From NCBI GenBank assembly GCA_951406725.2, contig OX597838.1, positions 12,896,001 to 12,960,000 on the forward strand: 64,000 nt of DNA, written 5' to 3'. Position numbers and translations under genes: made by a program. This stretch comes from Octopus vulgaris. Lineage: Eukaryota. Below are positions 11,471-44,016 of this stretch, one piece after another. Within the stretch, counting starts at the first letter, position 1. Each line of letters opens with the position of its first letter. Under the pieces are notes generated by a model, which did not search any database, had not been told where the DNA came from, and was given only the letters and a program-made list of their open reading frames with translations.

Positions 11471-12621
11471 GTCAGGTCTCTTCAAACCGGAAGCAGCCTG
11501 GCCCTAGTGCTTGTCCTAGAGTCAGTCCTGTCGAAGACACTCGAAGTCTGGGATGGGTAAAGTGACATTAAACCAGAAGACGGACTGAATTTGCAACAAC
11601 CTTGTCCATCCCTTCTTCTCCCTTAAAACCCCGGTAAAATTACAGCAGTATGACCCTCCCCCACCCGCTTTCTTACCTCATAACCTTCTCAAAAATGAAT
11701 AAGCAGAACGAGGGGACATTTGGGATAGGAGTCGTTGAATAGGTCACAGGATGTGAGACGAAAGAACTTTGACAAAGTAACTAAAATGATAATAATAATA
11801 ATAATGAAGCTGAAGTGAAGATCAAATATACAGTGCGTGTGTTTAATTGGCAAAATATGACCGTCCCCAAGTATAACCATATTTTAACTCTTTAACATTT
11901 AGACCACCCATATCTGGCGAAAATATTCTCCCTGTTGTGTGTTCAAACCGGTCAAATGACTGAAACAAGTAAAAGAGTAAAAAGAGTAAAGAGTATTGTT
12001 TTACTCTTGTATTTAATCCATCCCATGGTCTCTTAGCGCTTAGATCCTCCAGTGCAGTCAATACAGCAGGCAACGAGCCTACTCCAATAGCTCGCTTTCT
12101 TCGTGACTCCACTCGGGCCAACTCTCAACGCTGTCGTGTCGTCATGGAACGTACAGTACCATCTCTACTTTAGTCTTCCACTCGTTCTATTTCCTCTTCC
12201 CAGCGTCTACATTCTTTCAACCACTTGAATTATCTAAAACTCTTAAAAAGATAAGCCTCTTATTGTCATTTCATTGGGCCGACACCGAAGAGGGTTGTTG
12301 ACATGACCAAAAAGGAAACTTCCACCTAACGTTTGAATTCTTGATACATTCTTCGATCCAGTTTTGTCATCTTCCGAAGTGAAGGATGATGGCATTTCTT
12401 TACAATGTCCGTTTGCCATTTCAGTCGCCGTCCGGTACAGAACAGCAACGTGGCCCTGCCGTTTATGAAAAAAAGAAGAAAAAAAATGCAAATATGTATT
12501 TCTTAGATTTAAAAATATTTCTTCACATACACACACTCTCCCCTTCCACACATACATTCATAAAAGTTAAAAATGGAGATTGAAGACAGGACATATATGT
12601 ATATATACATACCGGCATATA

Positions 12622-42632: not shown

Positions 42633-42888
42633 GTTGAATTTTCTGCTGCTTTAAATAAAGCATATTACTCTACCACTGGTATTTGAGTACTCTTTTTTCC
42701 ACCTTGTTTCACATTTATGTGTTTACTCCGGTACATACATATATATATCACGGAAATGTACTTGCATAGCAAGTGACCTGATATGAGATCTTGTGATGGA
42801 ACAAAAACAATTGCAGCATGGAATGTGTTTATAAGCCATTTAAGAAACACAAAAACTGTTAGACTCACTTCAACATTTAAATTTAATT

Positions 42889-42935
42889 TTTCAAAATATT
42901 TTCGTTGCTTTGAAACTGCGACCTGTTCACTGACA
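42889..42935 (-). ncRNA. minimal hammerhead-like motif with G3-C8 core
   Basis: UGUCA-GUGAACA-g-GUCGC(9 nt)GCAAC-GAA-AAUAUU-U-UGAAA. Confidence 0.5.
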
Positions 42936-42956
42936 TAATTCTGTGCAGCCAAAATC

Positions 42957-43005
42957 TTGTCAGTGAACAGGTCACGGTCTCAAATCGAGGAAAATATTTT
43001 AGCAA
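42957..43005 (+). ncRNA. minimal hammerhead-like motif with G3-C8 core (inverted partner)
   Basis: UUGUCA-GUGAACA-g-GUCAC(9 nt)UCGAG-GAA-AAUAUU-U-UAGCAA; helices more decayed than in the partner. Confidence 0.4.
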
Positions 43006-43020
43006 ATTAAATTCAAATGA

Positions 43021-43389
43021 CTAGCACTATGACCCGGCAACGCCGGGTCATAGTGCTAGTGCGCATGCATATACAGCTGCGTGTGTGCGCATATATGCGC
43101 TGAGTACTGTCCAAATCTCTGACCAATCATATACAGCTAGCTGGTATTCAATTGGAGTATCAAGTTTCGGGCATTTTTGGGTTTTGGATAGAAAATTCAC
43201 AAAAAAGTCACTTCTATTAATTTTTTTAATGGCTTTGCAGGATGACTGGGGAAATGTAAAGATGTGCACGACCACCCTTGGATGGTTTTGAATGACCATA
43301 GAAAATTCGAGCCTTCTAACTGAAAAATTGTGGATTTGTATAAAGGATACACACACAGACAGGCATTTTGCTGTTTATATATATAGAGA
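43021..43389 (-). mobile_element. non-autonomous Helitron inserted in one arm of a foldback
   Basis: Minus strand starts TCtctatatatataaac and ends with a hairpin plus CTAG; lies between A43020 and T43390; no TSD. Confidence 0.85.
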
Positions 43390-43478
43390 TGAAGTGAATC
43401 TAACGGTTTTTTGTGTGTTTCTTAAATGGCTCATAAACACCTTCCACGCTGCAATTGTTTTTATATATATTTTTCTTT

Positions 43479-43516
<38 letters not shown>

Positions 43517-44016
43517 CACACATACGCATGTGCGCCTGTGTGTGTGTATTTTGTTTTTAACTGATGGACATGAAATAGATAATGGTATGAATAATAGCGT
43601 GGAAGTATTAGGTTAAAAACCCCCAATATTTACAGCTCATTATTCATTCTTTATCAAATTCGAATTCAGCCACTAAAAACGAATTATTTCATGTTTATAA
43701 TTTCTAATGATGTAGCCAGCCGCCACATACACAAGCGAACATATATTGTTCCTCGAATAGCGAAAGTAGAATAGAATAATGTTTTATTGAAACTGAGAAA
43801 ACTTTAGAAACTCTTACTCAAAGTTTCATGTAATCAATCATGTAATCAATCATCAGACACCCCTGAGTATTTTAAACAATATGATGCTTTATAAATGTTT
43901 ATTGACATTTATAAACTAATCATGAGATTGAAAATACTCAAGAGTGTCTGCTGATCATTTACATGAAACTTTGAGTAAACATTTCTGAAAGTTTTTGCAG
44001 CTTCGATAAAATACTA

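Follow-up and report, generated by a model that had tools for sequence, protein, structure and literature searches.

In a window of 64,000 nucleotides of the Octopus vulgaris genome, we found two decayed hammerhead motifs on opposite strands, and sequence comparison indicates that the retroelement family from which they derive carries a true hammerhead homologue whose C3-G8 core pair has been swapped to G3-C8. [quoted passage not shown] The original prediction had placed two hammerhead-like motifs on opposite strands of a foldback, and both could be read there letter by letter. On the forward strand, the right-arm motif comprises TTGTCA (42957-62), GTGAACA (42963-69), G, GTCAC, a loop, TCGAG, GAA and AATATT (42993-98), followed by U17 at 42999 and TAGCAAA (43000-06). 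On the reverse strand, the left-arm motif comprises TATGTCA (42937-31), GTGAACA (42930-24), G, GTCGC, a loop, GCAAC, GAA and AATATT (42900-895), followed by U17 at 42894 and TGAAAAA. The inverted repeat segments pair 42874-42943 with 42950-43019 (81%) and 42803-42855 with 43410-43462 (92%). This agrees with the predicted arms (~42803-42935 and 42957-43462), although it had not been stated that the left arm continues to 42750 or that the right arm is split by an unrelated insert at ~43020-43389. The insert, which is putatively Helitron-like, has a 41-nt 5' hairpin and a TA-rich 3' end, and related copies lie in loci L133 and L351. Both arms end in the start of an ORF, with stop-free translation from ATGs at 42839 (left arm) and 43426 (right arm) that resembles the N-terminus of the family's protein and of its sister, family B; only the first ORF codons are present in the window copy.

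Table 1 Features of the inverted insertion, in positions of the window
Feature	Position	Strand	Basis
Left arm: tailed pLTR end of a 5'-truncated PLE, comprising leader, hammerhead motif, 5' UTR and the initial 30 ORF codons	42750-42949	-	85% identity over 202 nt to young family unit L125:7040-7265
PLE tail, ~54 nt, left arm only	42750-42803	-	Comparison with young family unit; one tailed arm per inverted pair in family
Decayed minimal type I hammerhead motif with G3-C8 core (G3 at 42930, C8 at 42925); cut predicted after U17 at 42894	42887-42937	-	Sequence
Head-to-head junction of two 5'-truncated copies, inside or just upstream of helix I	42936-42956	.	Sequence and inverted-repeat comparison; family 5' ends 20-22 nt upstream of G3
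Right arm, first part	42950-43019	+	Inverted-repeat and family comparison
Decayed minimal type I hammerhead motif with G3-C8 core (G3 at 42963, C8 at 42968); cut predicted after U17 at 42999	42957-43006	+	Sequence
Unrelated ~370-nt repeat inside right arm; 5' hairpin 43020-43060	43020-43389	+	Sequence; 88% identical full copy in L133
Right arm, second part: remaining 5' UTR, ORF start (ATG 43426), tail-less 3' end	43390-43461	+	93% over 72 nt to family unit
(TA)n-rich target flank; left counterpart 42738-42749	43462-43512	.	Sequence; most family 3' ends run into TA repeats

Since the two local motifs lie on opposite strands, they cannot meet in one transcript and form no cis dimer; the inverted arrangement results from integration and does not represent a dimeric ribozyme. 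Neither local copy (42887-42937 or 42957-43006) adopts the hammerhead fold in its minimum-energy model, in line with the earlier view that both are decayed. Elsewhere in the window, a second, unrelated imperfect inverted repeat of ~200 nt (43798-43994) is the source of weak miRNA-family Rfam matches, and positions 11730-11890 contain a pLTR end, likewise decayed, that belongs to a related family (E type) and has TTGAATA as its core string.

The motif reconstructed by taking the better base from each arm proved to exist as such: it has 4,995 exact matches (2536 + 2459) in the 2.8-Gb genome, in which the window is part of contig C25, compared with 0 for the reversed control. A typical copy of this family, hereafter family A, reads TTTGTCA, GTGAACA, G, GTCGC, loop, GCGAC, GAA, AATATT, T, TGACAAA, so that the family copies restore the perfect helices I (TTTGTCA/TGACAAA) and II (GTCGC/GCGAC) that were anticipated for the consensus. 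The core positions U4, G5, A6, A9, G12, A13, A14, A15.1-U16.1 and H17 are all present, and the predicted cleavage-site triplet is UUU. To avoid selection on the core, we drew a core-blind sample with an anchor (6,381 matches) that lies 13 nt beyond the predicted cut on its downstream side, and analyzed the first 100 copies, all of which lie on contig C1. The whole motif is spanned by 68 of these; G3 is present in 67 and C8 likewise in 67, as expected if GUGAACA is kept genome-wide, and 11 of the 68 carry a G·U variant of helix I. In the contigs of four runs under three organism labels, no other letter exceeded 5% at G3 or C8. Mismatched cores in the family number 167 for G3·G8 versus 28 for C3·C8, and the 17 matches to A3-U8 or U3-A8 in the whole clade, 4 of which are A3-U8 in family A context, are compatible with decay. 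A lone family A copy (L391:2444-2495) combines a C3-G8 core with a helix II start like that of family C, and is either a chimera or a double mutation. As foreseen, searches based on CUGANGA overlook the motif, which differs from the literal consensus, and CUGANGA/UUGANAA descriptors miss at least ~5,000 motifs in this one genome.

The predicted PLE origin and the link to an RT/GIY-YIG ORF were established from both directions. Copies extended upstream lead to a GIY-YIG ORF on the same strand as the motif (423 matches), and 29 of 30 loci chosen by the GIY-YIG protein alone carry the G3-C8 motif 927-1240 nt downstream. The autonomous partner has a single ORF with RT and C-terminal GIY-YIG; its longest frame (1025 aa) combines RT motifs with a CX3CX2C linker and a GIY-YIG match at E 1.8e-5, and RVT_1 matches weakly in four of five relatives. 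In 20 older loci (81-89% aa), the motif was found in the flank of 13 (8 GTGAACA, 3 GTGAAGA and 2 otherwise damaged), and 7 were without it. The tandem pLTR-ORF-pLTR arrangement is complete in family B; for family A, an upstream tandem pLTR joined to the ORF was not found among the loci examined. A GIY-YIG fragment upstream in L057 was ruled out as the partner of the motif, as it belongs to a different, Neptune-like element; the ORF of this element (L091:1927-4365, and upstream in L061 and L057) is a host of family A insertions.

The proteins of the clade (L125:2471-5545, reverse strand, and P0002-P0048) have a C-terminal GIY-YIG, yet their RT motifs A and B lie 126-130 aa apart in 23 of 24, ~70 aa above Penelope; by our count in Fig. 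S1 of Craig et al. 2021 (PMC8557442), the spacing is ~58 aa in Penelope and 81 aa in a Naiad. Canonical C-terminal EN+ PLEs are described in that paper as having no RT fingers insertion, a Nematis trait that the octopus clade does not share. The octopus clade is possibly an undescribed one. Pfam RVT_1 misses or barely detects the RT of this clade.

The history of the swap can be read from the relatives of family A. Family B, the sister family (57% aa), has C3-G8 at the homologous place. The C3-G8 pattern has 4,029 matches, mostly family B among the 100 matches listed, and also occurs in five smaller families or single copies; a descriptor demanding A9 and an unbulged helix I misses family B. 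In the young, abundant subfamily of family B (L221, L266-L295), core position 9 is C, older copies have A9, and position 17 varies between C and U. An older family, D (copies ~80% alike), has a GTGACCA core, with G3 in 20 and C8 in 27 of 30 rows. Family D differs from family A in having a G-C pair in helix I where A has U-A, and AAUU instead of AAUAUU in helix III, which is palindromic in both, as had been proposed for this helix. Over 20 rows, taken from 8 families, positions 3 and 8 are CG in 10, GC in 9 and other in 1, and the helix covariation that was suggested as a check is present, helices I, II and III each having two-sided changes. The covariation score was 0.275, compared with 0.146±0.018 for a shuffled control that ignores relatedness, which inflates the result, and with ≤0.078 when slid.

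A tree of downstream sequence, in rows that include some flanking DNA, separates A and D from all C3-G8 families (support 100/99). When the majority letters of A and D are compared, 11/11 positions agree in the core and 10/10 in helix II, against 64/86 across the UTR and ORF start next to the motif (one comparison, Fisher p 0.006); positions after A15.1 inside the motif were read from the family alignments, the 2-nt helix III gap being misplaced by the aligner. N7 and loop II changed between A and D, as did the one pair of helix I (U-A in A, G-C in D) and the palindrome of helix III (AAUAUU in A, AAUU in D). Among 31 metagenome relatives, many of them without downstream DNA, the strict descriptor matched three (two C3-G8 and one U3-A8), and a looser look at nine added one C3-G8 and two U3-A8 candidates; one relative (L413) combines U3-A8 with C9. 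Since no G3-C8 was found by the strict descriptor in the 31 or the looser look at the nine, G3-C8 is likely the derived state. The swap is real, of single origin on the tree, and old, because C3-G8 stands at the same place in relatives and G3-C8 is kept in an older sister family with helix I covariation and a palindromic helix III.

The ends of the copies bear on how they inserted. In the core-blind sample, the 5' end falls 20-22 nt upstream of G3 in 23 of 100 copies. An extra G precedes AGATG in 13 of 24 junctions beginning AG before ATGCAGC, where the element itself has C or T (p 1e-4 at 19% G), a count that may be inflated by microhomology with the other arm. A single copy in 100 begins exactly at the predicted cut, and its junction is explained by microhomology; 4 of 100 begin at the cut or ≤6 nt upstream of it, versus 9 in the preceding 26 positions, indicating that there is no pile-up at the cut. 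Judged by these ends, the genomic copies derive mostly from uncut RNA. The 3' ends of the family fall at two sites ~55 nt apart, and exactly one arm is tailed in 59 of 60 inverted pairs, about a dozen of which represent one re-amplified junction, and in 18 of 18 pairs of an unbiased sample. In 3 of the 60 pairs the arms have different loop II types, suggesting two template RNAs in one event. One inverted-pair junction recurs in 13 of 100 sampled copies (L026, L029, L030, L040, L140, L143, L173-L178, L193, L204-L213), with an identical flank where inspected, and hence represents a single insertion re-amplified as part of another unit. In family A, the sequence immediately preceding the common 5' end resembles a splice acceptor with a branch point; we favour a start site because truncated copies have no common upstream exon and family D has no pyrimidine tract there, an intron being the less likely reading.

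In the Anolis PLE, the protein nicks and extends both target strands, and the tail is defined by the two internal sites where reverse transcription begins (Frangieh et al. 2024, PMC11167929), a scheme that fits both the two 3' ends and the one-tailed pairs of the octopus family. In the octopus element, transcription would start ~22 nt upstream of G3, where copies begin, often with an extra G that may be a copied cap, and the motif would lie in the 5' UTR ~90 nt before the ATG. Reverse transcription of uncut templates would start internally at the two sites in the first ORF codons, giving tail-less and tailed ends, and run to the RNA 5' end; two cDNAs primed on both target strands would then join head to head, yielding a locus such as the present one. 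Cleavage, if any, would free a capped leader of ~58 nt, in a fraction of the RNA that is minor or late, with insertion independent of cutting. In a bolder reading, which we consider doubtful, the core is slowed and two template RNAs are joined within a single PLE particle by pairing of their palindromic helix III, so that both strands are primed at once from two internal sites, and the motif is the first natural G3-C8 hammerhead. If true, the two-RNA particle would explain why almost all inverted pairs have exactly one tailed arm and why in some the arms come from different subfamilies.

The Watson-Crick pair between positions 3 and 8 matters in the active hammerhead conformation. On sequence grounds we lean towards the swapped motif being still a slow ribozyme, which would cut only with the help of a partner RNA and the element's protein; this is favoured because the 3-8 pair was restored, the core was conserved after the swap, C3G/G8C gives partial rescue elsewhere, and both G3-C8 families (A and D) have U17 instead of C17. 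The original prediction held that a swap to G3-C8 retains activity, and lab mutants uphold this in part: the C3G/G8C double mutant partly restores cleavage of hammerheads in general (PMC8495972) and of the Anolis PLE ribozyme, where the protein is required for cleavage and the uncut RNA is the insertion substrate (PMC11167929). A G3-C8 variant with C17 is stated to be less active than one with G17 (PMC3884650, data not shown there). In predicted folds of young copies, helix I has pair probabilities of 0.70-0.99 and helix II of 1.0. The minimum-energy fold extends helix I by a G3·U17 wobble, and this extended fold is possibly an inactive trap. The AAUAUU helix III duplex is predicted at only -0.2 kcal/mol, and the exchange dimer (-27.2 kcal/mol) is barely better than two monomers (-26.6 kcal/mol).

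Alternatively, the fold may be kept for protein binding, or for RNA pairing through the palindromic helix III, in the element RNP, with G3-C8 tolerated and practically inactive; we regard this as possible, albeit rather unlikely. Such a role would suit the origin of copies from uncut RNA, the two template RNAs suggested by the pairs with differing loop II types, the expansion of family B with A9C, and the finding that ribozyme mutants of the Anolis PLE leave insertion in vitro unaffected (PMC11167929). It would also suit the G3·G8 subfamily: in 20 further G3·G8 loci, 19 of them on contig C16, one loop type is common to all (19 exactly) and the ends and flanks are mixed (35-44 flank letters inspected), indicating that a source predicted to be dead for cutting transposed. 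However, both changed bases again give a Watson-Crick 3-8 pair, all 11 core positions are identical in A and D, relatives elsewhere have C-G or U-A only, and the G3·G8 mismatch lineage is stuck at ~3% and is not the youngest subfamily. On C16, the G3·G8 subfamily and many older ORF-bearing copies are concentrated at ~1.3-11.5 Mb and 42-56 Mb (L442-L460).

A functionless relic, with two neutral substitutions that became fixed in a single source lineage and were passed on to its copies, seems improbable. The mismatch and A9C variants were able to amplify, and A and D are 74% identical outside the motif, so that the excess conservation found in the one comparison (p 0.006) is modest; on the other hand, two independent transversions would have had to restore the pair by chance, helix I underwent a compensatory change after the swap, and helix III took on a new length yet stayed palindromic while N7 and loop II were free to vary. 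Finally, it is hardly credible that the locus is a foldback or MITE DNA transposon, or that the hairpin resembles a hammerhead by chance: the long inverted repeat stands in TA flanks, a transcript across both arms is predicted to fold as a single hairpin (-62.7 kcal/mol), and Rfam gives no hammerhead match at the locus, only weak miRNA-type hairpin matches, but Rfam also misses the C3-G8 controls L221, L267 and L412, the arms are unequal (one tail in 59 of 60 pairs), the position of the 5' end varies, numerous copies stand alone or are RT-ORF-linked, and the linkage of the motif to the ORF refutes this reading, the re-amplified junction (13 of 100 copies) being a secondary event.

As for novelty, Lünse et al. 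2017 reportedly describe a large set of PLE hammerhead variants, which may bear on it. A natural G3-C8 hammerhead was not found in the literature searched in full text, where the pair is met only in laboratory variants. The accessible parts of PMC6765202, PMC6155905, PMC10085705 and bioRxiv 10.64898/2026.07.22.740005 contain nothing on a natural G3-C8. The metazoan PLE pLTR hammerheads (Cervera & de la Peña 2014, PMC4209133) resemble the octopus motif in being of type I, with an extra nucleotide separating position 9 from 10.1, G10.1-C11.1 and a short palindromic helix III, and in their pLTR location, mostly truncated copies and some opposite-strand pairs. Their cores are C3-G8 and U3-A8 (Cercyon), in contrast to the G3-C8 of the octopus family; supplementary file 2 of that paper contains no G3-C8, with none of its nine GUGA strings in the core column. 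The natural core variants of Perreault et al. 2011 (PMC3088659) likewise include 3-8 covariation, which in the accessible part of that report is U3-A8 only, and the hammerheads in File S2 of PMC8557442 all have C3-G8 cores, with no G3-C8.

Among known elements, the EN+ PLEs of Nematis/Neptune type (PMC8557442) are similar in having an RT followed by a CX3CX2C linker and C-terminal GIY-YIG, as well as an inverted 5'-truncated copy, a one-sided tail and (TA)n targets; compared by eye, the short CX2-5CxxC linker resembles the Nematis rows of Fig. S2 in that paper. The Poseidon element PAc of Anolis (PMC11167929) shares a hammerhead near the ORF start, two 3' ends defining a tail in the first ORF codons, AT-rich targets and insertion from uncut RNA. 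It differs in its tail of 30-40 nt and an ATG in stem II, compared with ~54-58 nt and an ATG ~90 nt after G3 in octopus, and by its CxxC linker the octopus element belongs to another clade. The double mutant C3G/G8C that was made in the laboratory for PAc is the natural core of the octopus family, where the swap is the wild type. Non-LTR retrozymes consist of head-to-tail tandem monomers from which circular RNA is made, unlike the inverted pair at the octopus locus.

If confirmed, the finding would widen the range of natural hammerhead cores by a pair so far found in print only as a partly rescued lab mutant. Moreover, one clade in one genome offers C3-G8, G3-C8, G3·G8 and A9C versions of the core with known ORFs and relative ages, which makes it a testable question whether a PLE hammerhead must cut, or only fold and pair.
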